Assembly: GCA_049675585.1 (NCBI GenBank) | Contig: JBAUAJ010000102.1 | Coordinates: 109-64,108, forward strand | Length of the DNA stretch: 64,000 nucleotides | From: Thermoplasmata archaeon | GTDB lineage: Archaea; Thermoplasmatota; Thermoplasmata; Lutacidiplasmatales; UBA184 | Direction of reading: 5' to 3' | Shown: one piece after another, positions 9,080-61,725 of the stretch | Position numbering within the stretch: position 1 is the stretch's first letter | Layout: each line of letters starts with the position of its first letter | Notes under the pieces: model-generated | Seen by the model: the letters and a program-made list of their open reading frames with translations, nothing else | Database searches by the model: none | Told to the model about the DNA's origin: nothing | Made by a program: the position numbers and the translations under genes

Positions 9080-9144
9080 ACTCCCCAGGGGCCCTCTGAG
9101 GGACATCCACCGCAATCAACGTTATTCCCGGGAGAGGTCCGTTA

Positions 9145-9152
9145 GGAACTCC
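9145..9152. repeat. Left copy of the 8-bp target-site duplication GGAACTCC of the IS66 element
   Basis: Identical octamer immediately outside both inverted repeats. Confidence 0.85.
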
Positions 9153-10681
9153 GTACGTGTTTAGCGCCCAATCGGGCCCACTAACAGTTTAGGGCGTTGT
9201 AGAGTTTCACCGCGGGATCCTCGCCGCGGGTTCGCCATGTCCCGACGATACTCATCAGGCGGGCGAACACATTCGCCCCTCGCTCGTTCCTCAGGGTTCC
9301 GATGATCTTCCGGACCACCACCGCTTCTCGTAGCGCCCTCTCCCCTCGATTATTCGTCGGCTCGACCCCGGGCCGCCTCAGGAAGGTTAGCCACGACCCC
9401 ATTCCATTCCGAAGATACACCCCCACCTTTCGGAGTGCCTCTGACCCACCCCGTTCGTATTGCCGCTGAAGAGAGTGGAGCTCCCGCTGCCCCAGTCGCT
9501 CCAGTCTCGAACGATTCCTCGCTCCGTCGTCGTCGGCCAACTCTTGGGTGAGGATTCCGTAGAGCGCCTTCAGCTCCTCCGCGAGTATCTTCGCCTCCTC
9601 GTCCTCCTTGCCCGCGGCCTTCGCGATCCTCAGGAGATGCGCCCAACACCGCTGGAGCGAGTATCCCAGGTAGGCGGTCCACCCATCGCAGACCACGGTG
9701 CCCCCGTACTCCTTGCCCAGTATCTCCTCGACCACGGAGGCACCTCGGCTCGGCCGTATCACGAGGAGGACGTCGCCCGCCACCGTGGTGAACCCCCACA
9801 ACCACCACGTCTTCCCGTCCATCAAGAAGCTCGTCTCGTCGGCGTGGACCACCGCCGATCGACGGATCCGCCGGCGGATCGCTCCATACTCCTCCCCGAG
9901 CTGATCGCTCGCGGCCCACACGAGTCCCTGGAGCGTGGCGGTGCTCATCGAAGCGCCCTCCCGCGCGAGCCGTTCCGCCAAACGACGGTAGGGAAGTCGC
10001 TCGAGAATCTTGCCGATCACGACCTCGCCCTGGAGTTGCGGACCGTAGCCGGAGGGAGCCCTGCCGTCGGGCAGGGTGCCTCGAACTTCCTCGCCACAAT
10101 CGAGGCACGCGTAGACGGGGATGGTGAACTCGGTCGCCACTGCCTTCCTCGGCGGAGGGAGCTCCACTTCGGTCTTCGTATCAGTTCCGGTGCGTCGGAG
10201 TCGGTGGCCGTGGCATCGGCCACAGGCAGCGGCGCTCAGGGTCACCCTCCGATCAGGGACGAGCGGCTCGCGGGTCATGCCGGGATGGCCGGATTTGGGT
10301 CCGGGCCTCTTCCGTTCCTCGGGCGGAGTGAGGGGCCGCTCGCGGGAGAACCCGGGAGAATGATGGAGCACGCTGGGAGGGACGTTCGGGTTCTCGTGGA
10401 CCTTCAGACGCCGGCGGAGCTCCGCCGCCTCCTTGCGGAGGCGCTCGATCTCGGCCTCCTGTTCCCGGAGCTTCTTTCGAAGCTCAGCGGCCTCCTCGGG
10501 AGTGAAGATGACCTTGTCACCGTCGGCGGTGGGAGTGAGCCGGAAGTACCAGTCCCGAGCGACCATTTGCCCTCGGGTGAGGGGCTAACGGCTTCCTAGA
10601 TTTACAATTTGGGTACGCGCAGAAGCGACGGGGATCTCCCGTCAACGTGTGACGAATTCCCTGACGGAGCTAAACACGTAC
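9153..10681 (-). mobile_element. IS66-family insertion sequence (single-ORF variant)
   Basis: Perfect 13-bp terminal inverted repeats: GTACGTGTTTAGC at 9153-9165 and GCTAAACACGTAC at 10669-10681. They are flanked by an identical 8-bp direct repeat GGAACTCC (9145-9152 and 10682-10689). An 8-bp duplication is the IS66-family target size. Confidence 0.85.
9181..10566 (-). CDS. IS66-family transposase (TnpC-like)
   Basis: N-terminal coiled coil (EAEIERLRKEAAELRRRLK), a Zn-finger (CGRCHGH ... CLDCGEE), and a DDE region (VHADETSFLMDGKTWWLWGF, VVCDGWTAYLG, RCWAHLLR). Confidence 0.9.
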   Translation of the reverse strand: MVARDWYFRLTPTADGDKVIFTPEEAAELRKKLREQEAEIERLRKEAAELRRRLKVHENPNVPPSVLHHSPGFSRERPLTPPEERKRPGPKSGHPGMTREPLVPDRRVTLSAAACGRCHGHRLRRTGTDTKTEVELPPPRKAVATEFTIPVYACLDCGEEVRGTLPDGRAPSGYGPQLQGEVVIGKILERLPYRRLAERLAREGASMSTATLQGLVWAASDQLGEEYGAIRRRIRRSAVVHADETSFLMDGKTWWLWGFTTVAGDVLLVIRPSRGASVVEEILGKEYGGTVVCDGWTAYLGYSLQRCWAHLLRIAKAAGKEDEEAKILAEELKALYGILTQELADDDGARNRSRLERLGQRELHSLQRQYERGGSEALRKVGVYLRNGMGSWLTFLRRPGVEPTNNRGERALREAVVVRKIIGTLRNERGANVFARLMSIVGTWRTRGEDPAVKLYNALNC

Positions 10682-10689
10682 GGAACTCC
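10682..10689. repeat. Right copy of the 8-bp target-site duplication GGAACTCC of the IS66 element
   Basis: Identical octamer immediately outside both inverted repeats. Confidence 0.85.
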
Positions 10690-10774
10690 GACCGCGCTCC
10701 ATGGCTCCACGACCTTTTCCCTCGGGGGTAAGTGGCCCCTTCGAACCCAGAGGGGGTTTCCCGTGCTGGGAACC

Positions 10775-11111: not shown

Positions 11112-12380
11112 GTGCCCTTCTCCGCCGCCTCCCGTCAGTTTCTCACCGCGGCGTTGGTCCACCTCGCGGCGGCAGGCGCCGTGTTGCTGCTGGGCTCGGG
11201 CGTGGGGGCACTCACCATACGCTGGGACTTCCTCGTCTGGCTACTTCTCATCGGCTTTGCCGGGTTCACCACCGCCGGGTTCGCCCTCCACCTCTTTCCA
11301 ACTATCTCCCGGCGCCACCAACCACCCTCCAGGGTCGGGCAGGCAGCGTTCCTCCTCGCCGAGGGTGGCCTCGTCCTCGGAGCGGCCGGCCTCTCAGAAG
11401 CGACCTCGCCTGCCCTCCCTAGGTGGGTCTTCTCACTAGGGGCGCTACTCTTCCTGTGTGGCGAAGGAGCCATTGTAGGTCTCTTCGCTCGCGAGCTCGT
11501 CCAACCCCGGTTGAATGCCCCCGGGCCCGAGACCCGACCCGGCGATGCCGTGACGGTCCCCCTCTTTCTCATGTCGTGGATCTCGGCAGTGGGCTCGGGC
11601 GGGCTGTTCTTCCTCTCCGGCCTCGCCGAGGGGCCCGGGTTCGGTTGGTGGATCGCGGCGGTGCACCTGTTCGTTCTCGGGCACGCCATCCTCCTCATCA
11701 CGGCGGTCAGCCTCCGCCTCATCCCCCGTTCGCTCGACGCCAACGTTTCGCGCCCGGTAGTCTACCTTGTCGCCGGCCTCGCTATCGCCGGCGCGTTCCT
11801 CGTACCGGTCGGGATGCTAACGCTTCCGCTGCGTTCCGCCCCCGACCTCGCCTTCTTCGCGGCACCCGAGGCGGCGTTCGCGGTCCTGTTCGTTTCTGTG
11901 CTGATAGTCCTCGTGAGCCGGGCCCGGACTCCCCGCGCCGAAGCTGGCCTTCACCTGACGAGCCTCTCGTTGTTCCTGATCGGTGGAGCGATCGGACTCT
12001 GGATGGTCTCCGAATCGGACTACACCCTGGTCGTTACTCACGCGCTCGTCAACGTCCTCGGGTTTGTGGGCCTCACGATCCTGTTCATGTGGTTCGGAAT
12101 GATAGCCCCATTCCAGAGGATCTCCCATGCCTGGACGCGACGCATGCTCTGGGTTCTGTCTGCAATCTGGGTTGTTGGGGTGGTCACAGCCGCAACGGAG
12201 GGCGCCGGCGGGTGGTCCGGCACCGGTTGGTTATCGTCGTTCTCGGGGGCCCTCCTTCTCGGAGTGGCCATCACATGGGGGGCTGGTACGGTACCGGTCC
12301 TTTATCCGGGACTCAATCCATTGCCGGGACTGACCAGCGGTGAGATCCGGGTCATTCGAGATCGATGGAAAAACCGGTGA
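11112..12380 (+). CDS. Polytopic membrane protein with conserved intramembrane His residues (tentatively NnrS-like)
   Basis: About 12 hydrophobic segments. His in helices: GFALHLFP, AVHLFVLGHAILLI, VVTHALVNVLGF. GTG start. The 3' end overlaps the hemerythrin gene by 16 nt. Confidence 0.6.
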   Translation: MPFSAASRQFLTAALVHLAAAGAVLLLGSGVGALTIRWDFLVWLLLIGFAGFTTAGFALHLFPTISRRHQPPSRVGQAAFLLAEGGLVLGAAGLSEATSPALPRWVFSLGALLFLCGEGAIVGLFARELVQPRLNAPGPETRPGDAVTVPLFLMSWISAVGSGGLFFLSGLAEGPGFGWWIAAVHLFVLGHAILLITAVSLRLIPRSLDANVSRPVVYLVAGLAIAGAFLVPVGMLTLPLRSAPDLAFFAAPEAAFAVLFVSVLIVLVSRARTPRAEAGLHLTSLSLFLIGGAIGLWMVSESDYTLVVTHALVNVLGFVGLTILFMWFGMIAPFQRISHAWTRRMLWVLSAIWVVGVVTAATEGAGGWSGTGWLSSFSGALLLGVAITWGAGTVPVLYPGLNPLPGLTSGEIRVIRDRWKNR

Positions 12381-14779: not shown

Positions 14780-15301
14780 TGGACTTCGGTCATCTCCTGT
14801 TCAGAACCCGGATGATTTCATGTTGACCACTCGAATTGCGGCCGCCACATTAGCAAATCGGGCGTGGGGGTTCGGGGAATAGAACCTGGGGTTTCTGACA
14901 GTGTTGGAGGGGCGGGCGGATTCGGTTCATCGCACCGAGCGGTAGGAGAATCGGTTTGCCATGAATGAAGGATGTGGTTTGTCAACCCACAGGTTGAAAG
15001 CAGCGACGAAGTGAGCGTTGCCAGGGCCAAGACGGGACTTCCGACGCAGATCTCCGGTTCACTCTCGGACGGTAGGCGGACCCTGGGGCCGCGTCGTAAG
15101 TGCTGAATCAATGCTCAGGGGTCACTGGATTCGCTTGCCGTTGGGATTCGGAGCCCTCTTGCTCTCCCCTCGAACGCGGTGCCTCGCTCCGGTAGTCGGA
15201 ATCATTCGGAGTCGGGTCGCGACCTCTGCTATGAGCCCCGTTCGGAGCAACGGCAAGACCTTTAGGGGGGGTAGCTTAGCCCCCCTCCCTCACCCACAAC
15301 C

Positions 15302-15982
15302 GTGGAGCTCTTCAACAGGAACGTTACTCTTCTGAGGTTCCCTGGCGGGGGGGCCTTTTCGAAGAAGATTCTCGCGACCCGGGCCGCCTCGGCTGAGAGC
15401 GAGCCCCGAGTTTCCCGGATCTCGCCGCCCTCGACGTTTCCCGTGAAGAGACGGGGGGTCGTGATCACTGTTCAGGTGCCAACCCGAGTAGGGGGCCTTG
15501 AGCTCGTCTCCGACGAAATCCGCTACGCCCCTCAACACTTTGTCGTTCCGAGCTTGGTGTACGTCCTCGACGGTCCGGACGCGTCGACCGAGATTCTTGG
15601 CTATCGAAGGGGTGCGATTCGCGCCCTGCTCAGTTCCACGTTTTCCGGTCAGGACGCCGGTCCCCCGGAACCTCAGGCGCTGCGGCCGATCTCCCGGATA
15701 TTCCGGAAGGGTGATGTCTTGCTCAGGGCCCGCTACGTCCTCAAAGGCGGGCGCGCTGATGAACCGATTATCCGGACGGATACCGGGCGGAACCTGCCAT
15801 TCGAAGATCTCGTGAAGGTTGCGGACCCGGTCGAATCCATCACGATTCAAGCTCCCACGAATCGAGGGAGCCTCACGTTCAGAGTAGATTACGGTACGAG
15901 TAGCGTGAGTTTCTATAATTCTAGCCGCGTGCCTCTATCGTGGGATGACGTCTTCCAGACTGTCGATAAGCGCCTGTTCTGA
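15302..15982 (+). CDS. Hypothetical protein, first gene of the low-GC island
   Basis: Third-position G/C bias favours the + frame over the antisense ORF 15290..15850. The stop lies 11 nt before the next gene. No recognisable domain. Confidence 0.45.
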   Translation: MELFNRNVTLLRFPGGGAFSKKILATRAASAESEPRVSRISPPSTFPVKRRGVVITVQVPTRVGGLELVSDEIRYAPQHFVVPSLVYVLDGPDASTEILGYRRGAIRALLSSTFSGQDAGPPEPQALRPISRIFRKGDVLLRARYVLKGGRADEPIIRTDTGRNLPFEDLVKVADPVESITIQAPTNRGSLTFRVDYGTSSVSFYNSSRVPLSWDDVFQTVDKRLF

Positions 15983-15993: not shown

Positions 15994-16461
15994 GTGGCGA
16001 TGTCGAATCTTGATGAATTTGGGAAGGGCGCGCTCGAGAAGAAGGCGAACACGGTCCACTCTTCCCCCCTTCATACCCTGACTCTGCTCTTTATCGGGAA
16101 ACAGGGAGTTGCGACGTGGCCTCAATTGGAGTCCTCTCTGGCCATGATCGGATGTGATGATGCCGTCGCGGCCACCCTCGTTGGTCAACTCGAAAAGTTG
16201 GGACTTCTGATCGACCATTCGAGCTCCGCCGTGAGTCACCTATCGATACTAAAGCTAACAGACGAGGGTCGGGAGGTTGTCAATCTCATCGGGCCCTTGG
16301 AAAGAACCCAAGGATACCCGGTAACGCACCTGTTTGTAACTCTCGCGGTTGGGAGGAGGATAGTGGCGCGAAACCCGAAGTACGTGAACTCGAACCTTCT
16401 TCCAGCAGTCTCTTCTCTCGTCGACGACCTAATGGATAAGGTGGTTGCGCCCCAGGCCTAA
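15994..16461 (+). CDS. Winged-helix (MarR/PadR-like) DNA-binding protein
   Basis: LTLLFIGKQGVATWPQLESSL ... LVGQLEKLGLLIDHS ... LKLTDEGREV is a wHTH pattern. The ATG at 16000, preceded by GGTGG, is an alternative start. The stop overlaps the next start (TAATG at 16459-16463). Confidence 0.55.
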   Translation: MAMSNLDEFGKGALEKKANTVHSSPLHTLTLLFIGKQGVATWPQLESSLAMIGCDDAVAATLVGQLEKLGLLIDHSSSAVSHLSILKLTDEGREVVNLIGPLERTQGYPVTHLFVTLAVGRRIVARNPKYVNSNLLPAVSSLVDDLMDKVVAPQA

Positions 16462-18653
16462 TGTCGACCGCACTGCCCCCGTGGGTAGTAGATGCGGTCC
16501 GTTCAGGGAAACTCGCCCTCTTTCTTGGCGCGGGATTTGGGAGCTTGGCGCGTTTGCCGAGCAGCCCAGAAATCGCCAACCTCCTGGCTAGAGACCTCAG
16601 AGAGAGTGGTGTCGAGGAAACTCGGGTCGCCGAGGCGCTCGGCCGAGGACTGCAAGCCGTGGCCGGGCTCCACGAGATGGAGATTGGCGCCACGCGCTGT
16701 CAGCACCGCGTCGCCGAGATCATCACCGAGGCCGAGAAAGGCGCGGACGAGTCCCTCCCGAAGCTAGTTCACAAACTTGGAACTGTACCGGTTATCACGA
16801 CGAATTACGACTCCTTGTTGATGCGCACCGCGACCTCGCAAAAGAAGTTCAGGGCGATTTGGAAGGGCGCTCAACTCGAGTCCACCTGCGTCGGCATCAA
16901 TTGCTATTACGCCCACGGACTGGCGACGGACCCGGCCTCGATAATTATCACCGACAAACAGTACAACCAGCCACATGATGATCCCTTGGACGAGATGCTT
17001 AGGACCATCCTTCGGACGCACAAGGTCGTATGCTTGGGCTTCTCCGGCCGGGACGAGGATTTCCGGAAGCTCCTATCCCGCCTTTCAGTCGAAGCGAGTG
17101 GTCCCCAGCACCATAGGGGTCTTCTCGTCGTCGGGGCAGGACACGCCACGCAGAAGCAGCCTTACGAGGCGGAGCTCGAAGACTACGGATACGAAATGTG
17201 CCCTCAGGACGCCGGAGACGTTCTCAGGAGTCTCGTCAAACTAACGGAAGAATGGCTTAGGGAATCTCGCCGTGAGGTTGATGAGGAGGTAGTTCGCGAT
17301 CCTCTGCTAAGGAAGCTGAAGGAGGACCCTGCCTCGTTCGAGGACCTCTCGTCGCTGGTCGACCTATCTAGTCCGTTTGGCGCGACAGCCTCCGGCTCGG
17401 ACCCCGTCGCGGAGGTGGTGAGGACTCTCCGTTCCGGCTCCTTTGGTAGTCAGTCCTCAGCCGAAGTGGCAGCCCAGGACTTGATCACGCTTTCCATCGC
17501 TCACGTAAGCCGTGAATCCGGAGCACGGGGCCAGCCACGTCGGTTCGCCTCAACATTGAAACTCCACAAGATCTGCTATTTTGCACGCGAGTACCTTCTG
17601 TCAGTGCCCCTCCAGTTCGAGTTCCAGCGTTACCCGTACGGTGTTTGGTCCCCGGCGCTGGAGAAGTCTATCGACGCGATGGTTGAGGGGGGTCTCATTG
17701 CCCGATTCACGGGTCGTGCGAGTGAGGGAGAGCCCCATCACGAACGCCCGGGTGAGTTCGAGCTTACAAGGGCGGGTGAAGAAGAGTATTCGAAAGCCGA
17801 GAGGCGGCTGCAAGAGGGCCCAGGCGGCCTCGGGCCAGAGAGGGTCACTCAACTCAAAGATTTTGTCTGGTTCCTCTACGGGCAGAAGACCGTGGTACTG
17901 GGACTCGCTTCGAAACGCGACTTCATCGACCGGTCTTGGGGCAAGGAACTCCGAGCAGCGGTGATGACGCGGATTGACTCGGCTCTCAGAGACTTGGCGG
18001 TCAAGGATCCGGAAAAGGAGAAAATCAAGCAGCGCATCGCGGCGGCGCTTTCCCCCACCACCCACGCTGGCGCAGCCATCGCTTGGGGTGATCTAGGTCC
18101 GGACGGAGTCGTACGCGAACTTGCGCGGCGTTCGCCCCGAACCGTGTTCGATCCGAGACGCATCGCTTGGTCCGAGCAGAATGGAGTCCCGACCAATTAC
18201 TACGTGCCATTGGGAGCATATCGCGAGGACAGCTCTGTTGTGCGTTGGGTGACCTCCCGGGTCAAGGAGCTACTTCCGAAAGACTGTGCAGCTATCGTCG
18301 TTCTCGCCGATGGGATCGCTTTTGACGCCGCCAAAAGCGTCGCTGTCGAGAGACACAATGTGCGAGTAATCGGTCCCGTAGGGGGTGAATCCGTCCTGTC
18401 CGAGCACCCCGAGTTGGGGGCTCTCAGGGGTGTTCGGGTTGCAGTCATGACCAACGCCACGCAGACTGGCAGAAGCGCCGGGTCGGTGGTTCAACGTCTA
18501 AAAGAAGTGGGATTGAACGTGGGCCCGGTCATCGCGATCGCCGACCGCGGCGTGGGGGCTTCGGAGCATCTAGCAGCGCAGGGCGTTCGACTCGAGGCCC
18601 TATTGCGGAAGAGCGACCTAATCGACATCGTGAGAGTCGCATATGTTGCTTGA
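16461..18653 (+). CDS. Three-part fusion: SIR2-like NADase domain, Panacea/DUF4065-like domain, degenerate orotate-PRTase-like domain
   Basis: SIR2_2 motifs: LALFLGAGFGS (aa 18-28), VITTNYDSLL (N115), YYAHG (H152), VVCLGFSGRDEDF. Middle region aa ~340-415: TLKLHKICYFAREYLL...FEFQRYPYGVWSPAL. The C-terminus aa ~590-730 is collinear with the OPRT fold (VRVAVMTNATQTGRS ... IAIADRGVGASEHLAAQGVRLEALL), but the acidic PRPP-loop pair is replaced by TN. Confidence 0.8.
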   Translation: MSTALPPWVVDAVRSGKLALFLGAGFGSLARLPSSPEIANLLARDLRESGVEETRVAEALGRGLQAVAGLHEMEIGATRCQHRVAEIITEAEKGADESLPKLVHKLGTVPVITTNYDSLLMRTATSQKKFRAIWKGAQLESTCVGINCYYAHGLATDPASIIITDKQYNQPHDDPLDEMLRTILRTHKVVCLGFSGRDEDFRKLLSRLSVEASGPQHHRGLLVVGAGHATQKQPYEAELEDYGYEMCPQDAGDVLRSLVKLTEEWLRESRREVDEEVVRDPLLRKLKEDPASFEDLSSLVDLSSPFGATASGSDPVAEVVRTLRSGSFGSQSSAEVAAQDLITLSIAHVSRESGARGQPRRFASTLKLHKICYFAREYLLSVPLQFEFQRYPYGVWSPALEKSIDAMVEGGLIARFTGRASEGEPHHERPGEFELTRAGEEEYSKAERRLQEGPGGLGPERVTQLKDFVWFLYGQKTVVLGLASKRDFIDRSWGKELRAAVMTRIDSALRDLAVKDPEKEKIKQRIAAALSPTTHAGAAIAWGDLGPDGVVRELARRSPRTVFDPRRIAWSEQNGVPTNYYVPLGAYREDSSVVRWVTSRVKELLPKDCAAIVVLADGIAFDAAKSVAVERHNVRVIGPVGGESVLSEHPELGALRGVRVAVMTNATQTGRSAGSVVQRLKEVGLNVGPVIAIADRGVGASEHLAAQGVRLEALLRKSDLIDIVRVAYVA

Positions 18654-19335
18654 GCTCCACGACCAGCCGCTCGCCGGCAGGATCAAGGTGGGAGGCCTGC
18701 TCTACGGCGATTTCTTGACGACCCAGTATGAACCGACGCACTACTTCGTTACATTGAACGAGCTCGTAATTCAGGATGAGTTCGCGAGCGCGGTCGTATC
18801 CGCTACCCATGACCCTCGCGTATCTGAGCATTCTGTGGGTTTTAGTGGAATGAAGGGCGTTGGCCCGCTGGAAGCATGCGACGTCGTGCTGGGCTTGGCT
18901 TGGGCCCCCGAGACGATTCTACTCGGCAACAAACTCGCAACGTCTCTCGGCAAGAAGTTCGGTTTTGTTGAGTATGCTCGCCCCCGGTACGCCGCGGCAA
19001 GGTTTCGAGCAGATGACGTCCGCTGTTGCCGCCTGAAAGCCGACGAGAGGGTTGTTGTCATTGACGACGTCTGTGTCACCGGGGACGGACTCGCTCAAGC
19101 TTGCGGAGTAGTTCGGGACTACGGGGCGACTCCCTATGGGTTGGTTGTCGTGGCTCGTGGATCGGCAGAAACAATTCAGGGTCCGATGGCGGGAAACGAC
19201 GTCCTCGTCCTCGTAAGCCCTGAAGATATCGGGACCCCCACCGGACCGACCTACGTACCGCTCGACATCGCGAAGATCGAGGCGCAGCGGGGAGGCCCGA
19301 GAGCCCCAGCTGCACGTCAGCCTCCAAGCAGCTAG
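18643..19335 (+). CDS. Orotate-phosphoribosyltransferase-like type I PRTase
   Basis: N-terminal GGLLYGDFLTTQYEPTHYFVTLNEL (compare the OPRT pattern FGEFxLxSGxxSPxYxD). Intact PRPP loop ERVVVIDDVCVTGDG (D141-D142, nt 19063-19068). The ATG overlaps the upstream stop by 11 nt. Confidence 0.75.
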   Translation: MLLELHDQPLAGRIKVGGLLYGDFLTTQYEPTHYFVTLNELVIQDEFASAVVSATHDPRVSEHSVGFSGMKGVGPLEACDVVLGLAWAPETILLGNKLATSLGKKFGFVEYARPRYAAARFRADDVRCCRLKADERVVVIDDVCVTGDGLAQACGVVRDYGATPYGLVVVARGSAETIQGPMAGNDVLVLVSPEDIGTPTGPTYVPLDIAKIEAQRGGPRAPAARQPPSS

Positions 19336-19370: not shown

Positions 19371-20378
19371 GTGCCGGAGAATCTCCCGAGGTTCGCATTC
19401 TACTACCCGGGCCCAATTTGGGCGGATGCGGGCTGGATCAAGAATCTCATTCTCTACTTCGATGGAGTGGCCCTGCTCGTTCCCAGCTACTTGCGGACCA
19501 AGCCGTTCGATGTTGGTGGGACCACCGCGGCTGAGCTGCAGCAGGCTGGTTTGCTCAAAATACTCGAACCTGAGTCGTTCATCGACAAGAAATCCGTAAA
19601 GGAGCTCAGTCAGTCCCTATCGGCGATCCTCGAATCCGGTAAGCTCGATAAGCTGTCTACGGAGCATACGGTATTCGCTGAGCTATCATATTCACGTCTG
19701 GGCAGTGCCGCCGACGAGCGGCTCGCCGAGGAAGTCTATCGCGAGCTATCGAAGCGGGGGCTTGCAAAGGAAAGCGAGGACGGCGTGTCGATCCCAATGC
19801 ACCCATCGGTTAGGGCACTTATTCTCGTTCTTTGGTCACAAATCCTTCGACCGATCGGAAGGAAGCACGGCCTGGACCTGCAACCCGCGACTGACAGACC
19901 ACAAATGAACCAGGCCCTGGAGGAACTCCTTGGCCTCCGAGCCGTCCCTTCGCCCAGTGACGTAATCTCCTGCGATACCATTTCGGCCGGCGTCGACTTG
20001 GCTAACGCCCCCATTTCCAAGGTCCTAGCGTTTCGCGAGAAACATCACGAAGAATTCGGGGAGTACGCGCGGGACCTACATCGGTTCGTCCACGACATGA
20101 GCTGCCTCGCGACCGAACCGCGAGCTGAGGCATTTGCTGACAGACAGGAAGAGATCAAGGAGGCAGCGGGAAAACTCAGATCGATGTCTCGACGAGCGTG
20201 GGCAGGACGCGCTGCGTTCGGTCTGGGGATTCTTGGGGCAGCATGGAACATCAAACGAGGGGATGTCATTGGCGGCGCTCTCTCGGCCGGTGCGGGCCTC
20301 ACGGGCGCGGCGGCAACGAGACCGTCCGAAGCCTCCGCGTACTCCTACCTTTTCAGAGCTTCGAAAAGCCTCAACTGA
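19371..20378 (+). CDS. Hypothetical protein with a C-terminal glycine-zipper-like hydrophobic segment
   Basis: GTG start with GAGGGTG upstream. The C-terminus reads AAFGLGILGAAWNIKRGDVIGGALSAGAGLTGAAA. A T5 tract at 20506-20510 follows and may be a terminator. Confidence 0.6.
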   Translation: MPENLPRFAFYYPGPIWADAGWIKNLILYFDGVALLVPSYLRTKPFDVGGTTAAELQQAGLLKILEPESFIDKKSVKELSQSLSAILESGKLDKLSTEHTVFAELSYSRLGSAADERLAEEVYRELSKRGLAKESEDGVSIPMHPSVRALILVLWSQILRPIGRKHGLDLQPATDRPQMNQALEELLGLRAVPSPSDVISCDTISAGVDLANAPISKVLAFREKHHEEFGEYARDLHRFVHDMSCLATEPRAEAFADRQEEIKEAAGKLRSMSRRAWAGRAAFGLGILGAAWNIKRGDVIGGALSAGAGLTGAAATRPSEASAYSYLFRASKSLN

Positions 20379-20537
20379 CCTGCCAATCTCGAGCGCGGTG
20401 GCCGGTAGTGGTTCGAAGGACGTCCCCTGACGCAGGGTGTCGTTCCAGCGGGGAGGGTCGTTAGGCATCGGGAGGCCGACTCTCGCAGCGAACCCCCGGC
20501 GCTCCTTTTTGAATCGCGCGACCCTCCGGCGCCATGT

Positions 20538-21968
20538 ATGAATACCGGCGAGACGTTTGACCAATTCCGATCCGCCATCGAACGGTGTCGAGGGCTTTGG
20601 AGGTCCATCGAGGTCAGCTCCCTCGCCGCCAAGAGGGGGGGGACGCTCTACAACTCGATCACGGCCGTGCGACTTCGCCCCGAGCTCCCCGAGGAAATCC
20701 CGAAGCTCCAATCCATCGAGGTGGAGCGGCTCCTCGCCGGCCGGGTAATCTACCCCATCGCCAAGCTGGAGGAAACCCTGAGGTCAATCCAGTCGGACCA
20801 AATCCCGTTCGGCACGGTGACGCTTTCCCTGGAGAATCCACCCGACCCACCCGCTAACCAGGAATCGTTCCCCACGGGCATGTACAACTGGTACTTTCGG
20901 GACCTAGATGCTCCCCAAGGTAACTGCTGGCGAGCCACCAGCCCGCCGTCGCGCAGCTTCGAGCTCCACGGCAATAGTCAGTCCCCCATGCGCAGGTTTT
21001 GGTCCAACTCGGAATGGAAGTTCCTCGAGGACAGTCTCGCCTTCAACGACCCTCCCGCCGCGGACCTGGCGGACCTGGCCCAGCACGTCGTGCGTTGGGA
21101 CTGCGGGTTCGACAACTGGAACACCCAGCCGAACGTCGCGATCATCGCCCCGCTCTACTCGGCATTCGGTCCCGAAGTGATAGCATCCAAGACGAGCGTG
21201 ACGGTCCGGGCATCCGGTCCGAGCAGCGCGTCCATCGACGACTTCTCCATCGCTTCGGTTGTCCGGGGCCAGGAATCAATCGAGCGGACCCTTCACCGAT
21301 CGGGCAATCTCCAAGTCTCCACCTCAACACCGAGGCTGGAGTTCGGCGTCGAGATTCCCGCCGCCGACGGCCTGTGGCTCGATGCGAGCCTCCTTTTCCG
21401 AGGATTGAAGGCCGGTAGGATCACTATCCCGATCTCGTCGGAGAACCCTCGGATCCTTGCTCACGCTCACTTCGACCACGAGTGGGGCCTGATCAACGAC
21501 GCACTCGGACAAGGACAGAAGCAGCCGGATGCCCGAAAATTCGAGGTCGGGGTCGGTTGGCTCTTCCACCTCCTTGGGTTCCAGGTCGCCAACTACGGAT
21601 TGAAAGAGCTCAAACCCGACGAAGAGGTGGACATCCTTGCGTCCGTTCCATTCAGGCCCAAGGTCCTGGCCTTGGAGGTTACCACCCGGAGCCCGATGAA
21701 CCGGGACAAACTAGTCAAACTCCGGAAGCGCGTCGACGACCTGGCCCCGGTTCTCCAAGGGGTCGAGGTGCTTGGGGCCTTCGTGTCGGCCCACCCCTCT
21801 CCGTTCGATATCGAGGTGACCGATGCTCATTCCCTCGGATTGGGAGCCATATACGGGCAGGACCTCGACCGGCTCCTAGGAGATGCCATCGCTAACCGGA
21901 CTGCGGAGGAGTTCTTCGAGCAGTTGAAGCGCAAGCTTCAGGATCCTAACTCCCAGGGCGTGGGCTGA
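20538..21968 (+). CDS. Hypothetical protein with a C-terminal PD-(D/E)xK (Mrr-like) nuclease-fold region
   Basis: aa ~335-383: FEVGVGWLFHLLGFQVANYGLKELKPDEEVDILASVPFRPKVLALEVTT follows the Mrr-type E...D...ExK layout, but Thr sits at the canonical Lys position. Confidence 0.6.
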   Translation: MNTGETFDQFRSAIERCRGLWRSIEVSSLAAKRGGTLYNSITAVRLRPELPEEIPKLQSIEVERLLAGRVIYPIAKLEETLRSIQSDQIPFGTVTLSLENPPDPPANQESFPTGMYNWYFRDLDAPQGNCWRATSPPSRSFELHGNSQSPMRRFWSNSEWKFLEDSLAFNDPPAADLADLAQHVVRWDCGFDNWNTQPNVAIIAPLYSAFGPEVIASKTSVTVRASGPSSASIDDFSIASVVRGQESIERTLHRSGNLQVSTSTPRLEFGVEIPAADGLWLDASLLFRGLKAGRITIPISSENPRILAHAHFDHEWGLINDALGQGQKQPDARKFEVGVGWLFHLLGFQVANYGLKELKPDEEVDILASVPFRPKVLALEVTTRSPMNRDKLVKLRKRVDDLAPVLQGVEVLGAFVSAHPSPFDIEVTDAHSLGLGAIYGQDLDRLLGDAIANRTAEEFFEQLKRKLQDPNSQGVG

Positions 21969-22893: not shown

Positions 22894-23514
22894 TCATCCG
22901 GGAGCTGGCAGAGCTCTGACGGACCTCGTTGGTGGTTCCCGCCTGAGAACGGAGCGAACACCCCCGAGCTTGATGTTCATGCGCTGTGAGATCATCCGTA
23001 GGCTCTCGCCCTGGGCCTTCCGCTCCCGCACCTCACTCGCCACCGACTCGGAGATCCTCCTCGGGGCGCCGAACTTCTTGCCCAGCGCACGTGCCCGGGC
23101 GATGCCCGCCTGGGTCCGCTCCAGGATGAGCTCCCGTTCGAACTCTGCGAGAGCGGCCAGCATATTGCGTTGGAGTCGACCCGTCGGCGTTGACGTGTCG
23201 ATCCCCTGATCGATGACGATCACGCGGGCTCCCGCCGCGTCGGCGTCGTCCCAAAACCTGAGAATCATCCCGAGAGACCTGCCGAGTCGGTCCATCTTCG
23301 AAACGACCACCGCATGGAACTCGCCGGCCATCATCCGCTGCCGGAGTTGATCAAGCTCGGGCCGGTTGTCTCGTACCCCGGAGATCCCGTCATCCCTGAA
23401 GATTGCGACATCGGTCCATCCTCGAGCTTGGCAGTACGCCGTCAACTGGGCGACCTGGGCCTCGGTCGATTGCTCCTTGGTCGAGACCCGGGCGTAGATT
23501 GCCACCCGGGTCAT
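22894..23514 (-). CDS. Small serine recombinase (resolvase/invertase type)
   Basis: MTRVAIYARVSTKEQ catalytic-Ser motif, VVVSKMDRLGRS, and a C-terminal HTH. The ATG overlaps the methyltransferase stop (ATGA at 23511-23514). Confidence 0.9.
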   Translation of the reverse strand: MTRVAIYARVSTKEQSTEAQVAQLTAYCQARGWTDVAIFRDDGISGVRDNRPELDQLRQRMMAGEFHAVVVSKMDRLGRSLGMILRFWDDADAAGARVIVIDQGIDTSTPTGRLQRNMLAALAEFERELILERTQAGIARARALGKKFGAPRRISESVASEVRERKAQGESLRMISQRMNIKLGGVRSVLRREPPTRSVRALPAPG

Positions 23515-24920
23515 GCGGAAGCCTCTCCTGCCCTCGCGACTCTCGCGGTGGCCGCATCAGCCCGCTCTCGGGCCAGCACTGCGTACTCGGGGTTGAGATC
23601 GACGCCAATCGAGCGTCGGCCCAGCCGACGCGCCACGGCCAGCACCGTCCCGCTGCCCACGAACGGGTCGAGGACGAGGCAGGGGGCAGTTTCCCGGGTC
23701 GCGCATGCGCAGGCTCTCCGGAAGCCGAGGTCGACCCTACGGTAGGTCCCGTCGTGGATGCCACGGACCGCGATCCCCTGACCACGACCGACAGCGAGCG
23801 ACTTATCCGGGAACCAATCGTGGCCAATCCCTCCGCCCCGCGCGACGACCTTGTGGAACCAGGGAGTTCCGCACGTCGCGCACGCGCCACGCTCCGAGGT
23901 CCCGGCCCGAATGCAGACCTCCGCGAGCGCCTCCGGGAACGTCGCGAAGTGGGCACCCGGGTAGGGCTGCGTGGCGATCTGCCAGACTGACCGAAGGTTA
24001 CGCCCCTTCGGGTCGGTATTCGTCAGCATCGGAAACCGACGAAAGTCGCCCGTCTGGTGCTTGGACGTATAGCGGGGGTTGTCCCGCGGGTTCGGGACGT
24101 GGTGACGGAGCCGGCGCAGCGAACTCTCGTGCAGCGGCTCGCGCACCGCCTGGGCGTCGTAGAAGTACCGTCTCGATTTCGTCAGCTGGAAGACGTATTC
24201 GTGCGACCGGGTCGGCCGGTCGCGCACCGGCTCCGGCATCGGGTTCCGCTTCGCCCAGACGATGTCGGAGCGGAGGTACCAGCCGCGGCGCTGGAGCTCG
24301 AAGGCGACCTTCCACGGGATTCCGACCAGGTCCTTCTCCTTCAGCCCGGGCGACCGCTTGTCGATTGAGCCGGCTTGCTCGGCCCCGGTGTGGTCCCGGA
24401 TCCTGAGCCGGGAGCACTTCCAGCGTCTTGGCCCCGTCAGTCCTGCCGGGTGAGTGCAGTACGTGTCCCCCAGGTTCAACCAGAGGGAACCATCGGCGCG
24501 GAGGACCCGCCAGACCTCGTCGAGGACGTCCGCGAGGTGGTCGACGTAGAGATCGGGTGTGGGCTCGAGACCAAGCTCACCTCGCCAGGCACCGCAGTCC
24601 GTGCAGGACTCCGAGAGGCGAGGCGAGCGTGTGGCCGAGGCCCGGTTCAGTGTCTCGGCGACCATCGGGTGGGTGGTCTGGCCGTTTCCCGAGGGGACGA
24701 GGACGGTCGACCACCGATGGAGGCACTCAACGCTGCCACCCCAGACCTGAGGCTCGGTTCCGTAGGTTCGAAGCCCCCAGTAGGGTGGTGACGTGACGAC
24801 GCAGTGGACCGACTCGGCGAGCAGGGTGCGGAGGACGTCGATGACGTGCCCCTGTCGAATGGTGGGCCGGAGACTCTTCAGGACCGCGGTCAGGGTACCG
24901 CCCCCTGCCAGCGCTGCCAT
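23511..24920 (-). CDS. Beta-class DNA methyltransferase (N4-cytosine or N6-adenine, SPPY type)
   Basis: Motif IV VVTSPPYWG precedes motif I VLDPFVGSGTVLAVARRLGRRSIGVDLNPEY. No restriction endonuclease is recognisable nearby. Confidence 0.85.
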   Translation of the reverse strand: MAALAGGGTLTAVLKSLRPTIRQGHVIDVLRTLLAESVHCVVTSPPYWGLRTYGTEPQVWGGSVECLHRWSTVLVPSGNGQTTHPMVAETLNRASATRSPRLSESCTDCGAWRGELGLEPTPDLYVDHLADVLDEVWRVLRADGSLWLNLGDTYCTHPAGLTGPRRWKCSRLRIRDHTGAEQAGSIDKRSPGLKEKDLVGIPWKVAFELQRRGWYLRSDIVWAKRNPMPEPVRDRPTRSHEYVFQLTKSRRYFYDAQAVREPLHESSLRRLRHHVPNPRDNPRYTSKHQTGDFRRFPMLTNTDPKGRNLRSVWQIATQPYPGAHFATFPEALAEVCIRAGTSERGACATCGTPWFHKVVARGGGIGHDWFPDKSLAVGRGQGIAVRGIHDGTYRRVDLGFRRACACATRETAPCLVLDPFVGSGTVLAVARRLGRRSIGVDLNPEYAVLARERADAATARVARAGEASA

Positions 24921-25168
24921 CGGGCCGCGTTGACCTCGCCCCGAGTGCGTGCCTGACGCCCTTCGACCGATCGGACGAGGGCGAGGGTAAGCGTCCGGCG
25001 CGCCGCTGTCTCCACCGCGATTTGTTCAACCTCGCGGCGGACCTTCCACCCCGGTTCCGCATGGGTCCGGACCACCTGAAGGGTTCGGAGGTAGGCGCTG
25101 TGAACAGTGAGCAGGAGGTTCTCCAGCTCGCGACGGGAGAGGTCGGAGAGGTTCAGGTAAGTGGGCAT
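24890..25168 (-). CDS. Hypothetical small protein in the recombinase/methyltransferase operon
   Basis: It lies between the RHH gene and the methyltransferase on the same strand, with shared boundary nucleotides. No domain recognised. Confidence 0.4.
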   Translation of the reverse strand: MPTYLNLSDLSRRELENLLLTVHSAYLRTLQVVRTHAEPGWKVRREVEQIAVETAARRTLTLALVRSVEGRQARTRGEVNAARWQRWQGAVP

Positions 25169-25722
25169 CAGGCCGTTCCCTCTTCGGTCCTGTAGTCCCC
25201 GCGGAGGGCAAGGATCAAGCCGAGTACATCTTCGGGACTGGAACCCCGGAGCGGCGGGGCGCCCGCGATCCGCGCCTTCAACCAGTTCAGGTTGTGACCC
25301 TTCCCGAACTGCTCCGGGCCGTCCCTCCCGTTGGCGTAGAACGCGTCTGCGACGGCCCTCAGCGCGTTGAGCCGGGCCTGCTCGGTCGCCCGGGCCGCCT
25401 CCTCGAGGCGTTGGGTCTCGAGCAGATGGTCTCTCGCCGCCTCCAGGATACGGACGTGTTCTTGGTGCGACCGCAGTTCGGCTTCGATCTTGGTGAGGTC
25501 AGAACCACCGCGGAGTCGGTCGAGGGCCTCTCGCAGGACCCGACTGAGGACCACGTCGGTCTCGCGCGCCCAACGCAGGAGAGTTACTGGAATGGTAACG
25601 GAGACGACAACGGTCTCCCCAACCTTCTCCCAGCGGCGCTCCGGCCCGTGGGCGACTGTCGCAGAAAGGGTCCTGGGAGACCCGGGGTCAACCCGGGTTG
25701 GAAGGGTCGAACTGATTGCCAT
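25168..25722 (-). CDS. Ribbon-helix-helix (CopG-like) domain protein with a coiled-coil tail
   Basis: VVVSVTIPVTLLRWARETDVVLSRVLREALDRL is an RHH pattern. The start is uncertain because the first codons overlap palindrome copy 1. Confidence 0.55.
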   Translation of the reverse strand: MAISSTLPTRVDPGSPRTLSATVAHGPERRWEKVGETVVVSVTIPVTLLRWARETDVVLSRVLREALDRLRGGSDLTKIEAELRSHQEHVRILEAARDHLLETQRLEEAARATEQARLNALRAVADAFYANGRDGPEQFGKGHNLNWLKARIAGAPPLRGSSPEDVLGLILALRGDYRTEEGTA

Positions 25723-25790
25723 TCAGACCCCTCTCTCGGCGTGAACCCGGGTTGGAACCCGGGTTCGGGGACACAGAATCAACCCGGGTT
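25690..25790. repeat. Four copies of the 10-bp palindrome AACCCGGGTT (putative operator or recombination site cluster)
   Basis: Exact copies at 25690-25699, 25744-25753, 25756-25765 and 25781-25790, mostly in the context CAACCCGGGTTGG, at the 5' end of the RHH gene. Confidence 0.9.
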
Positions 25791-26382
25791 GGGGACGGTT
25801 GCCAGCGCCACTCTGACGGAGCGGAGGCTTCACGACCGGGGCGGACGGGGCGGGGATAGGCGGACGGGAGGGGCGTACGACCGGGCCGGACCCGGGACGG
25901 GACGGAACGGGTCGGAGTGCGGGAGCGGTACGGCGTGGGACGGAGAACGGATGCACGTGGCAGAGTGGAGGCGAACGGTACCCGGGACGGAGCTCGATGA
26001 TCCCCTGGGTGAGTCCGCAGACCTCGCAGAACGAGATCCGGAGGGTCGGGTTCCTTCGGATCGGGCTGCGGCACCGGGCGCAGATGAACCGCGGCTCGCA
26101 CCCGGCTTCTGGCTTGGGGGTGACGGTCGGGTTAGCGGACCCGGCCACTCCCCCTGAACAACCAGATGTCCGCCTCCGAGCCGGCCTCGTGGGTGGCGAG
26201 GAGCGGAAAAAGAGGGTGGAATGGGTTGGTCTGGGGCGTTCAGCTACTTGTTCGGAGGTGGGGAGAGGTTGCCGAACGAGTTGCAGAGCGTAGAGCCCGT
26301 TGAGCCGGTCCAGGTCCCTGTGGTCGCCCAAACACGCCGCCGGGGCGATGAGATGGCCAAAACGGGCAGAATCCCTGTCGGA

Positions 26383-26455
26383 TGGGCTCGGCCGGATTTG
26401 AACCGGCGATCTTCGCTGTGTGAGAGCGACGTCGTAACCGCTGGACCACGAGCCC
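26383..26455 (-). tRNA. tRNA-Val (anticodon CAC)
   Basis: Manual fold: acceptor GGGCUCG/CGAGCCC, anticodon stem UCGCU/AGCGA, loop CUCACAC, T arm GCCGG-UUCAAAU-CCGGC, discriminator A. No encoded CCA. Confidence 0.9.
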
Positions 26456-54124: not shown

Positions 54125-54228
54125 AGCGGGGTAGGGTAGTCAGGAAAGCGGCCGGCGTTGTCCGACCGTCCTGAAATCCCGACGGGCTCATAACCCGTAG
54201 ATCCATGGTTCAAATCCATGCCCCGCTA
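54125..54228 (+). tRNA. Initiator-type tRNA-Met (CAT) with a ~29-nt insertion (intron) in the D loop
   Basis: Acceptor AGCGGGG/CCCCGCU (A1:U72). Anticodon stem ACGGG/CCCGU has three G:C pairs; the loop is CUCAUAA. T arm CAUGG-UUCAAAU-CCAUG. The gene is 104 nt instead of about 75. The extra segment folds as TCAGGA-AAG-CGGCCGG-CGTTGT-CCGACCG-TCCTGA. Confidence 0.7.
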
Positions 54229-54261
54229 CTCTCGCTATGTTCTTATCTCTGCCTGTCCTCA

Positions 54262-55560
54262 ATGAACCCAATGCCGCCCACTCCACCCCGGCCTCCGATT
54301 GGAGCTCACGAAGCGGCGGTCAACGTCTACATCGAGAACCGCCTTGCCTCGATCCGAGGAGATGGGCCGATCGGAAACGGTAAGGACCCAGCCAACCCGT
54401 CCCGAGACGCCCGGGATGCAATCATTTCGTTCCTCAACGCTAAACGGGGAGAGATTGGAATTCTTCACTTCCGGAACTATGTTGCCTGGCTCCCTGTTGC
54501 TGCGAGTAGACTCGGTGTCTCATTCCTCGAGCCCGCCGCCGGCATTCAGGCGAAGTTCAATGAGTCGTTCCCCTCCAAGTCGTCGTCGTCGGATGGATAC
54601 TCGTTCTTTTCCCGACAGACCGTCGGAAACATGCTCATGGGCTTTTGGAGGTCCCGTCTCGCCGAGTTGGGTAAGCCGTTTCCCGAGGCCCTCCACCTCA
54701 AATTCGGCAAATGGAAGTCGCCGTTCAACGCGTCGGACATGCTCACCAGGGATGACGTCGCGAAGCTAGCCGAGTCGGTCGACAACTTACGGGACAAAGC
54801 CTGGATCTGGACCGCCTACGCGAGCGGCTGTCGACCTGGCGAGATTTTCAACTGCCGAGTCGGGGACGTCATTCCCAAGGAGGGCTACGTTGAACTTCGC
54901 GTCCGGCGGGAAAAGGATTCCGAGAACGCGCCGGCGTTCCTCTACGAGGATGCCGTTCCGGCCATCTTAGCGTGGCTCCGTGCGCACCCGTCCCGGGACA
55001 ATCCAAAGGCCCCACTGTGGGTTTCCCTTCGATCGGGAGAGCGAGGCCACGCAGCGGGGTACCGAGCCCTCGCCAAGGTCGTTGAAGTCGCGGCGAAGAG
55101 GGCGAATCTCGGCAAGCCGGCGACTCTCTACCACATGCGCCGAAGTCGGCTGACAGCTTTGGCCCGCGATCCCGCGATTTCGCAGAGCATCCTCGAGAAG
55201 GTCGCCGGATGGACGACAGGATCCCGGGTCGCCAAGCACTACGTGCACGTATCGTCCGAGGACGTTCGCGCGAGCTTGAACCGGCGCTACAATGTTTCCG
55301 ACGCGAAGTCGGTCGAGGAAATGATACCGGCTCGAACTGTCCGGAAGTGCGTTCGGTGCGAGACGACGAACGCCCCCGAAGCGCACTTCTGTTCGACGTG
55401 CGGGGGCCCGTTGAACATCGCCGCCATCGAGGAGATCAAACTTGTTGAGGCCGACCAACGACAGCTCGCGAAGCTCCTAACGCGTCCTGTGGTTCGTCGG
55501 CTGCTGATCCAGCAGCTCCGCGAGATGAATTCGGAGGTCGCAGCCGAGGCAGAAAGATGA
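54262..55560 (+). CDS. Tyrosine recombinase/integrase with a C-terminal zinc ribbon
   Basis: RPGEIFNCRVGDV (Arg I), LYHMRRSRLTALA (HxxR), VAGWTTGS...AKHYVHV (Tyr). CVRCETTNAPEAHFCSTCG. ATG 54262 lies 34 nt after the tRNA; the longer track ORF overlaps the tRNA. Confidence 0.85.
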   Translation: MNPMPPTPPRPPIGAHEAAVNVYIENRLASIRGDGPIGNGKDPANPSRDARDAIISFLNAKRGEIGILHFRNYVAWLPVAASRLGVSFLEPAAGIQAKFNESFPSKSSSSDGYSFFSRQTVGNMLMGFWRSRLAELGKPFPEALHLKFGKWKSPFNASDMLTRDDVAKLAESVDNLRDKAWIWTAYASGCRPGEIFNCRVGDVIPKEGYVELRVRREKDSENAPAFLYEDAVPAILAWLRAHPSRDNPKAPLWVSLRSGERGHAAGYRALAKVVEVAAKRANLGKPATLYHMRRSRLTALARDPAISQSILEKVAGWTTGSRVAKHYVHVSSEDVRASLNRRYNVSDAKSVEEMIPARTVRKCVRCETTNAPEAHFCSTCGGPLNIAAIEEIKLVEADQRQLAKLLTRPVVRRLLIQQLREMNSEVAAEAER

Positions 55561-56624: not shown

Positions 56625-57138
56625 CCCGGTTGGTTTTCTGTGGGGGGCACCACGCCCTCGCTCTCGTCAGGGATTTTTTCGACCAATCGGTCGCAACGGG
56701 GTGTTTTTAGGGAACCTCTAAAGGCACCCGGGTCGGCCCGGTTTAAAGAGTGAATTTAGACATTGACCGACCGTGGCGAAGCGGGACGGCACTACGCCCC
56801 GCGACGAGTCAACGGGGGGGCGAACGGTACGTGCAGATTTCACTTGGCAATCCAGCGGCCTCGCCGCTGCCTTCGCCGCGATCCAGTCCGAAGCCTGCGC
56901 CGTGCAAGTTCCAGTCACCGCTCCCGCGAAGCGCCAAAAATTCCATGCGCGGTCCCCGTAACTTCGCAAGCGGCGGCGGCCCCACAGTCGGGCTCATTCT
57001 ACACGTCCACTCGTTAGTGGACGCGGAAGAACTGAACGCGGCGGTCCACCGGCGAGCGCCGTCGGTAACGCTAATCTATCAAAAATTCGCGATCGGTCGA
57101 CTCCTCGTCGTACCCGCACCTGCCGAGGAGGCTCCGCC

Positions 57139-57378
57139 GTGAACGACGAGACACTAGAGGAACGCCCCATTCGGCTCGAAGCAGAAGTAATCGAGCGTCG
57201 CGAGCTGGCTAAAGCCTCGGCGGTGAAGGTCGGGGTAGCTCTTGCCGATCATGAGGACCGCCTTCGGGTACTTGAGGTGGACCTCTGCCCCCGAAAAGTC
57301 GACTATGCGCGAGCCACCCGGGAAATCAGAGGGGACCAACTCAATGCCGAACACCGTGAGAAACGAGCGCGTCCATGA
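57139..57378 (+). CDS. Hypothetical small coiled-coil protein
   Basis: Member of a chain of overlapping + strand ORFs (GTGA at 57139-57142, ATGA at 57375-57378). Confidence 0.4.
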   Translation: MNDETLEERPIRLEAEVIERRELAKASAVKVGVALADHEDRLRVLEVDLCPRKVDYARATREIRGDQLNAEHREKRARP

Positions 57379-60057: not shown

Positions 60058-60147
60058 ATGGCGTCCTCCTCAACCCAATCTGCGGCCTCATTCTCTCGCT
60101 CCGTAGGGATACTGCAGGCGGAATCGTAAGGCGGGGGCGAGCTGGTC

Positions 60148-61591: not shown

Positions 61592-61725
61592 ATGTATTCA
61601 ACAGTACGCGCAGGCCTTTCAGACAATCGATTGACCTCCGACGAGTAGCCCAGACGACTCGTACGGAATCGTAACTGATATCAAACCTCGTGATACCCTA
61701 CGTCGGCCGCAGGGGGTAGTGGCTA

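Follow-up and report, generated by a model that had tools for sequence, protein, structure and literature searches.

A candidate four-gene defence cassette with an interchangeable SIR2 effector and paired phosphoribosyltransferase-like domains in a Thermoplasmata archaeon

A stretch of 64,000 nucleotides (nt) from a Thermoplasmata archaeon (GenBank assembly GCA_049675585.1, contig JBAUAJ010000102.1, positions 109 to 64,108), called here the window and numbered from its first letter, carries four adjacent genes on the plus strand. With moderate confidence, these genes are read as a horizontally acquired abortive-infection or antiviral defence cassette in which a SIR2 domain would act as an NADase effector. 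The defence function was inferred from comparative genomics, because a conserved core is joined to swapped toxic domains, defence genes are found in the neighbourhood and the composition is foreign. Comparison of homologous loci at the level of sequence showed an invariant core. It is made of gene 2, the DarG C-terminal domain (CTD)/Panacea-like and orotate phosphoribosyltransferase (OPRT)-like domains of gene 3, and the paralogous OPRT-like domain which gene 4 encodes. In most loci gene 1 accompanies this core.

The first gene of the cassette, gene 1 (15302..15982), encodes a basic protein of 226 amino acids (aa) with an isoelectric point of 10. It is followed by gene 2 (15994..16461), which encodes a winged-helix-like protein of 155 aa; an alternative start at ATG 16000 (153 aa) is equally possible. 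Gene 3 (16461..18653) encodes a 730-aa fusion composed of SIR2, a linker, the DarG-CTD/Panacea-like domain, a helical region and the OPRT-like domain, and gene 4 (18643..19335) encodes a stand-alone OPRT-like protein of 230 aa. An earlier note on this DNA, made from the sequence alone, had proposed an operon of three genes. The three open reading frames (ORFs) which it named, 15994-16461, 16461-18653 and 18643-19335, were all found on the plus strand in the ORF listing, together with the TAATG at 16459-16463 which couples genes 2 and 3 and the 11-nt overlap of genes 3 and 4, where the ATG at 18643 comes before the TGA at 18651-18653. The number of genes was revised to four, as the 226-aa ORF at 15302-15982 is found in the same gene order on contigs encoding homologues and therefore also belongs to the operon.

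Homologues were identified by an exhaustive HMMER search over 1.84 billion representatives. Gene 3 has a single full-length homologue, P0002, with 35% identity over aa 4-728. Some ten further proteins of 416-513 aa matched only aa ~316-727 of gene 3, containing the DarG-CTD-like and phosphoribosyltransferase (PRT) domains without SIR2, and the remaining matches covered the SIR2 domain only. Word-indexed searches returned the query itself, P0010 only, or nothing. Pattern scans of metagenome and viral contig collections gave no further loci while the genome collection gave one, and no copy of the cassette was found in plasmid and phage collections by tblastn. The loci share a gene of ~226-263 aa, a gene of ~135-190 aa, the module gene corresponding to gene 3 and a PRT gene, in this order, and the PRT gene usually overlaps the stop of the module gene. 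This arrangement is found in the window and in loci L002, L003, L004, L005, L006-8, L009, L010, L016 and L017, and partly in L015. The conserved linkage on which the earlier proposal depended thus held in about ten loci, and homology was checked in pairwise comparison and with leave-one-out profiles. Against the corresponding genes of L003, gene 4 showed 44% identity (E=3e-28), gene 2 showed 28% (E=5e-15) and gene 1 showed 27% (E=2e-19). Leave-one-out profiles recovered gene 4 in 8/8 loci, gene 2 in 10/10 (two of them weakly) and gene 1 in 8/10; gene 1 is also among the genes called on the Logan contig L001. The ~10 independent metagenomic loci vary in GC from 0.28 to 0.62, and two of them are metagenome-assembled genomes (MAGs) of archaea, one being a Methanotrichaceae archaeon. 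In the locus of this Methanotrichaceae MAG (L004), positions 11150-11475 contain the start of gene 4 (…IIYGDLIT…), a stop codon and then a continuation in another frame (…AGLSWISSSMLLAKFL…). This break reflects either a frameshift in a pseudogene or a fault of the assembly, and the contig ends soon after it.

SIR2 is present in only two of the ~11 loci, the window and L003, in both at the N-terminus of gene 3. Other loci carry different domains at the C-terminus of gene 4. In L005 and L009 it is PF24390 PRTase-CE, equivalent to PADLOC PRTase_III-A, the effector family of type III-A retrons (E=2.8e-42 and 4e-42). L002 has a nitrilase-like domain which matches the DRT 'RTasNitrilase' model (5.4e-9), and L006-8 have a cytidine deaminase along with EAD7. 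A separate gene following the stand-alone gene 4 of L017 encodes a DUF6602/NucC-like PD-DExK nuclease (2.2e-21), and an overlapping gene after gene 4 of L016 encodes an uncharacterised protein of 393 aa. On this comparison, SIR2 appears as an interchangeable effector and not as a defining part of the cassette. A conserved core which is located in variable regions and takes up different toxic domains is the usual signature of defence systems.

The informative neighbours of the cassette were restriction-modification, TIR, AbiV, Schlafen-like, MazE and recombinase genes, and not genes of nucleotide metabolism. L002 possesses a TIR protein, an MmeI-like restriction-modification enzyme and MazE, L006 possesses BglII and a resolvase, L009 a methyltransferase, and L010 HEPN_AbiV and SLFN_AlbA_2. 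The window itself has a resolvase, an N4/N6 methyltransferase and IS66 in the vicinity of the cassette. No pyrimidine-pathway genes were seen nearby among the ORFs scanned, and the lower GC content noticed earlier was also evident, with 0.595 in the cassette compared to 0.655 in the whole window and 0.70 at 27-53 kb. GC at third codon positions was 0.64-0.70 in the cassette genes compared to 0.78-0.86 in the ALS-like, methyltransferase and PurA genes. This low GC in both measures points to a putative foreign origin. Synteny with related Thermoplasmata MAGs is limited to the adjacent ALS-like gene, and the cassette is absent beside the ALS-like gene in those genomes. The adjacent TPP enzyme belongs to a cluster at 90% identity in which every named member comes from a Thermoplasmata MAG.

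The SIR2_2-type domain of gene 3 (16461..17210, aa 1-250) was well supported. Pfam PF13289 matched aa 111-245 with E=1.7e-17 and 64.3 bits, compared to a gathering cut-off of 24.5. The motifs GAGF (aa 23-26), TTNYD (N115) and HG (H152) are present; they align with those of a solved SIR2 structure (PDB 9v0g, E=1.7e-6) and are conserved in P0002, the sole full-length homologue. The PADLOC model of ThsA1 matched collinearly (E=2.8e-11), with aa 10-216 corresponding to profile positions 14-216 of 478, and further weaker PADLOC matches were obtained for Dsr1, LmuA and PDC-S25. The domain is therefore predicted to be an NADase effector with intact catalytic Asn and His. The linker which joins SIR2 to the central domain (aa 254-336; 17220-17468) matched EAD8 very weakly (E=0.24), and this match was treated as noise.

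The central domain of gene 3 (17472..17816, aa ~338-452) contains KLHKICYF and YPYGVWS along with a winged-helix-like hairpin, and had been assigned to Panacea (DUF4065). This assignment stood at the superfamily level through the DarG CTD and failed at the level of the Pfam model. SocA_Panacea (PF13274) gave no match to the window protein and reached E=0.21 in only 1/13 family members, which is not significant, and direct Pfam support was rejected. DarG models matched the window protein with E=8.6e-5 (PADLOC) and E=0.006 (NCBIfam antitoxin_DarG), and DarG was matched in 7/7 family proteins tested (PADLOC E 1.7e-7 to 1.5e-3). Only the C-terminal half of the DarG profile is covered, positions ~177-235 of 329. 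When the family profile of the central domain was compared with the PDB, the single match was the C-terminal domain of DarG (7yk3_B, E=0.0012). In DarG, the CTD binds the toxin and inhibits it (PMC8832971, PMC13621843), Panacea antitoxins are paired with many unrelated toxins (PMC8832971), and DUF4065 proteins are homologous to the DarT-inhibiting helical domain of DarG according to a 2026 paper (PMC13621843). 'Panacea-like' seems a reasonable name for the domain in the sense of superfamily relation and not of Pfam membership. AlphaFold gave a predicted local distance difference test (pLDDT) score of ~80-95 across the domain. In Foldseek comparisons with the model of aa 301-730, PRT matches dominated, so that the fold of the central domain could not be separated.

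Among viral proteins, the same model matched PRTases and, weakly, a phage PadR regulator and several small uncharacterised proteins of Sulfolobus viruses (SSV4, SEV1, SPV2), the latter with a template modelling (TM) score of 0.56-0.59 on the target. The winged-helix part of the central domain is the probable source of the Sulfolobus virus and PadR matches. The domain was also found in a different setting: the N-terminal ~200 residues of P0025, a protein of 2016 aa, are homologous to aa 313-495 of gene 3 and are followed by WD40 propellers and HEAT repeats. The WD40/HEAT architecture is typical of large NTPase-type conflict proteins, and the N-terminus of such proteins is the usual position of effector or adaptor modules. 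P0025 suggests that the central domain may be a portable adaptor or effector-control module.

The C-terminal ~170 residues of gene 3 (18144..18653, aa ~562-730) form an OPRT-like type I PRT domain, as proposed earlier, with E ~1e-4 for the single sequence and 4.5e-10 for the family profile against the PDB. The loop for phosphoribosyl pyrophosphate (PRPP) reads VAVMTNATQTGRS, with TN in place of the canonical DD pair. AlphaFold gave a pLDDT of only 38 for the 730-aa protein from single sequence, and a mean pLDDT of 77.7 for aa 301-730 built on an alignment of 11 sequences. In Foldseek, the PRT part of this model matched OPRT and APRT structures with E ~1e-6 and target-normalised TM up to 0.72. 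The T-G-x-(S/T) phosphate loop of the type I PRT fold is retained in most members. The most conserved positions of the whole gene 3 module are found in its PRT domain (PTNY, TG, ADRG, G). Numbered from aa 301, N279 and R396 are invariant, and T278, Y280, D395, G399 and G370 are nearly so. This pattern argues for a constrained pocket, and of the two PRT pockets of the cassette that of gene 3 appeared better conserved across the family.

Gene 4 was matched over its full length to the OPRT structure 2yzk by its family profile (E=2.2e-13), and PRT-fold proteins such as PyrR were among the weaker PDB matches. The loop VVVIDDVCVTGDG with the canonical DD pair is present as described. The gene 3 PRT domain and gene 4 are paralogues (hhalign probability 97.7%, E=1.6e-12). 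On the OPRT equivalog TIGR00336 gene 3 scored 17.2 bits and gene 4 scored 21.2 bits, compared to a cut-off of 106.8. The PERKGHG position of OPRT is the catalytic flexible loop; gene 4 has no counterpart of RKGHG in the alignment, with ARPRYAAARF standing where 2yzk has PERKGHG. Equivalog score, acidic pair and flexible loop, the features of PyrE, are not jointly found in gene 3 or gene 4. The pairing of an active with a degenerate PRT, which the earlier note had proposed, stood for this copy and failed family-wide, where both PRPP loops are non-canonical. The gene 4 loop has DD in 2/8 loci (the window and L016) and TP, FH, SD, GD, TD or VD in 6/8, and the gene 3 loop reads TN, VN, AN, TD, LN or FD across the family. 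The effector of Retron-Eco11 is reported to have a TD loop, VVILTDTIGSGNQ, and its activation lowers PRPP (PMC12746101). Since a TD-type loop is reported to be active in that effector, a loop without DD is no proof of a dead enzyme.

Gene 1 had no match in Pfam, PADLOC, PHROG or the PDB, and no hydrophobic segment suggesting a membrane span was found. About 15 nt upstream of its start codon there is a G7-N8-C6 element (15265-15285) with the potential to form a hairpin. Lying between the ALS-like gene and the cassette, it could have a regulatory function or act in the manner of a terminator. A sigma-70 promoter scan found nothing; this consensus is not meaningful for an archaeon. The winged helix-turn-helix (wHTH) assignment of gene 2 survived in weak form, as its family profile matched PadR and MukF at E 1e-3 to 1e-2. 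Gene 2 also matched NCBIfam BilQ with E=0.009.

OPRTs are obligate dimers, and for this reason the coupled PRT-like domains of gene 3 and gene 4 are expected to heterodimerise and thereby to bring the two proteins into one complex. The most likely role of the PRT pair would be regulation or the binding of a phosphoribosyl ligand, either PRPP or a nucleotide, and not biosynthesis. The DarG-CTD/Panacea-like domain would silence the effector by direct binding, comparable to DarG with DarT and PanA with its toxins. Genes 1 and 2 may take part in sensing of infection or in regulation of the operon. Upon triggering, SIR2 would hydrolyse NAD+ and the infected cell would be arrested. The earlier suggestion of a PRTase which acts on NAD-derived products was disfavoured and a recycling role was set aside, as the PRT pair is also found with effectors unrelated to NAD, namely nuclease, deaminase, nitrilase and PRTase-like ones. 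A more far-reaching possibility, which is put forward tentatively, is that the cassette represents a new class of immune system in archaea and probably also in bacteria. Here an OPRT-like heterodimer would sense or make a phosphoribosyl metabolite and, together with the DarG-CTD/Panacea-like clamp, would gate plug-in effectors. The OPRT-like domains would be catalytically remodelled in such a class, and the effectors would comprise SIR2, retron-type PRTase, nitrilase, deaminase and NucC-like nuclease; this part is speculative to the same degree.

Several observations weigh against the proposed defence cassette with a regulatory PRT pair. The sample consists of ~10 loci, many of them on short contigs, and a homologue of gene 1 was not detectable in L010 or L017. 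The link to Panacea consists of E-values from 1e-3 to 1e-7 and a statement in one paper. The PRT domains could be enzymes, given the catalytically active TD-type loop of Retron-Eco11 (PMC12746101), and gene 4 of this copy retains the canonical DD pair.

Among the other explanations, a toxin-antitoxin or addiction module of a mobile element holds up best, though it is considered rather unlikely. SIR2 would be the toxin, the Panacea/DarG-CTD-like domain would be the antitoxin acting in cis or in trans, the wHTH protein would autoregulate the operon, and the cassette would stabilise its island; this detailed version is equally unlikely. The DarG-CTD/DUF4065 relationship is in line with it, and so are the resolvase, methyltransferase and IS66 near the cassette in the window and the resolvase in L006. 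The association of Panacea antitoxins with many unrelated toxins (PMC8832971) also resembles the effector swapping observed here. However, the known PanAT and DarTG pairs are much simpler than a conserved core of four genes that contains two PRT-like domains, and the fused retron III-A PRTase-like domain, DRT nitrilase, NucC-like nuclease and EAD7 are typical of immune systems. Addiction and antiviral roles do not exclude each other.

Somewhat less probable again is a catalytic PRT pair, which would either produce a nucleotide-like signal from PRPP or act as a PRPP-depleting effector like ShosT and the type III retron PRTases; in the latter version, held to be just as improbable, SIR2 would work as a further effector in parallel. 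The gene 3 PRT domain has a conserved phosphate loop TG.(S/T) and a conserved DRG motif, and the DD loop is present in gene 4 of the window and L016, but the gene 4 loop is TP, FH, SD, GD, TD or VD in 6/8 loci and the RKGHG counterpart is missing from gene 4 in the 2yzk alignment. Retron-Eco11 depletes PRPP with a TD loop (PMC12746101) and toxicity of ShosT requires PRPP binding; the PADLOC models of PRTase_III-A, ShosT and PsyrTA, however, matched neither of the PRT domains. The separate NucC-like nuclease of L017 would fit a diffusible signal, NucC proteins being known to be activated by nucleotide signals, while the covalent fusion of most effectors to the core suggests direct control. A housekeeping nucleotide-metabolism or regulatory operon (OPRT or PyrR-like) with an incidental sirtuin deacylase finds some likeness in the OPRT-like folds and in PyrR among the weaker PDB matches of the gene 4 profile, but it is highly improbable in view of the absence of pyr genes among the ORFs scanned nearby, scores far below the OPRT equivalog cut-offs, the extreme rarity of the cassette (one full-length homologue among 1.84 billion representatives), the absence of the cassette beside the ALS-like gene in related MAGs, the foreign codon composition and the toxic effectors which are its partners in other loci.

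The cluster matched no whole system in PADLOC v2, as expected from the earlier note; genes 1, 2 and 4 had no PADLOC match, and gene 3 matched only at the level of the SIR2 and DarG domains. No description of SIR2 combined with a DarG-CTD/Panacea-like domain and paired PRT domains was found in the literature searched. The cassette may thus be described as an effector-swapping abortive-infection or defence unit, composed of known folds around an undescribed core. It shares a SIR2_2-type domain with GAG, TTNYD and HG, and an expected depletion of NAD+, with Thoeris, DSR1/DSR2, SIR2-HerA and SPARSA-type prokaryotic Argonaute (pAgo) systems. It differs from them in having no SLOG/STALD, TIR, HerA, pAgo or long DSR-type sensor region; its regulatory part consists of the DarG-CTD-like domain and the PRT pair, and SIR2 is replaceable. 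Unlike ThsA of Thoeris, gene 3 has no C-terminal SLOG/STALD, the rest of the protein being DarG-CTD-like and PRT-like, and no TIR match corresponding to ThsB was found by Pfam and PADLOC among the eight ORFs of 15-26 kb. DSR1 and DSR2 have ~1000 aa or more compared to 730 aa of gene 3, and the Dsr1 matches cover only its first ~200 residues. Pfam and PADLOC detected no helicase among the neighbours of the cassette which would correspond to SIR2-HerA.

Type III retrons such as Retron-Eco11, which consist of a reverse transcriptase (RT), a non-coding RNA (ncRNA) and a PRTase-like effector with or without a wHTH protein, share with the cassette the combination of PRTase-like and winged-helix proteins and the non-canonical TD-type PRPP loop. 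Their III-A effector family PF24390 is even found on gene 4 of L005 and L009. However, the core PRT domains are OPRT-like and unmatched by the retron PRTase models of PADLOC, no retron RT was found among the window ORFs scanned, and in the window Rfam found only tRNAs and no retron ncRNA. With DarTG and PanA, the cassette shares the relation to the toxin-inhibiting DarG CTD (7YK3) and, as in Panacea, the association of one family with many unrelated toxic domains. In contrast to DarTG it has no macrodomain and no DarT match, and in contrast to PanAT the Pfam Panacea model is not reached and the domain lies inside a four-gene system instead of a two-gene pair. PRT-fold proteins are also found in prokaryotic immunity in ShosT (ShosTA), PsyrTA and Ophion OpnC, whereas the cassette has no DprA-like, RecQ-like, radical SAM or PHP partner and no PADLOC match to those models. 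The presence of two OPRT-like paralogues whose PRPP loops vary suggests a role in regulation and not as a toxin.

To our knowledge, few archaeal defence systems have been studied experimentally, and if confirmed the cassette would add a new multi-gene immune architecture for archaea. The PRT fold would then be a regulatory or sensing scaffold in immunity, beyond its role as a toxin in ShosT and type III retrons. Three separately studied modules, SIR2 NADases, DarG/Panacea antitoxin domains and retron-type PRTase effectors, are joined here, and the effector swaps which occur naturally on one core make it possible to study directly how a single sensor governs effectors of unrelated chemistry. 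The cassette also provides a testable context for gene 1 and its orphan protein family.

Other features of the window were noted around the cassette. Following a gap of 35 nt, two plus-strand genes (19371-21968) encode proteins of 335 aa (a sub-threshold match to DUF6236, E=5.6e-5) and 476 aa, the latter without match in any library. They accompany the cassette in no other locus and could be a separate system in the same island. The minus strand at 22894-24920 encodes a serine resolvase (206 aa, E=3.5e-44) and the N4/N6 DNA methyltransferase (469 aa), and the resolvase overlaps the end of the methyltransferase. Relatives of this methyltransferase with 90% identity are present in other Thermoplasmata MAGs, and no cognate endonuclease was identified for it. 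An IS66-family transposase (461 aa) at 9140-10694 is flanked by 29-nt inverted repeats (9140-9168/10666-10694, 83% complementary). This element, which lies 4.6 kb upstream of the cassette, appears to be an intact insertion sequence. A tRNA-Val(CAC) at 26383-26455 is positioned at a step in GC near 26.4 kb, from ~0.62-0.68 to ~0.70, and all of the left 26 kb may be accessory. Direct repeats of att type which would link this tRNA to the left edge of the island were sought, and only repeats at chance level were found.

Three direct copies of a 21-nt unit with the palindrome CAACCCGGGTTGG are present at 25683-25794, spaced by 54 and 37 nt. They adjoin the 5' end of a minus-strand ORF of 184 aa (25168-25722), the first copy overlapping its start, and may form a binding array for a regulator. 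At the other end of the window (54151-64000), Rfam gave a weak tRNA-like match of 30.9 bits, which ARAGORN did not call, and a tyrosine integrase (54205-55560) follows it directly. This region has a low GC of 0.56-0.61, encodes a DUF5906/D5-type primase at 57620-59557 (PHROG DNA primase, 2.4e-41) and is probably an integrated virus or plasmid-like element.

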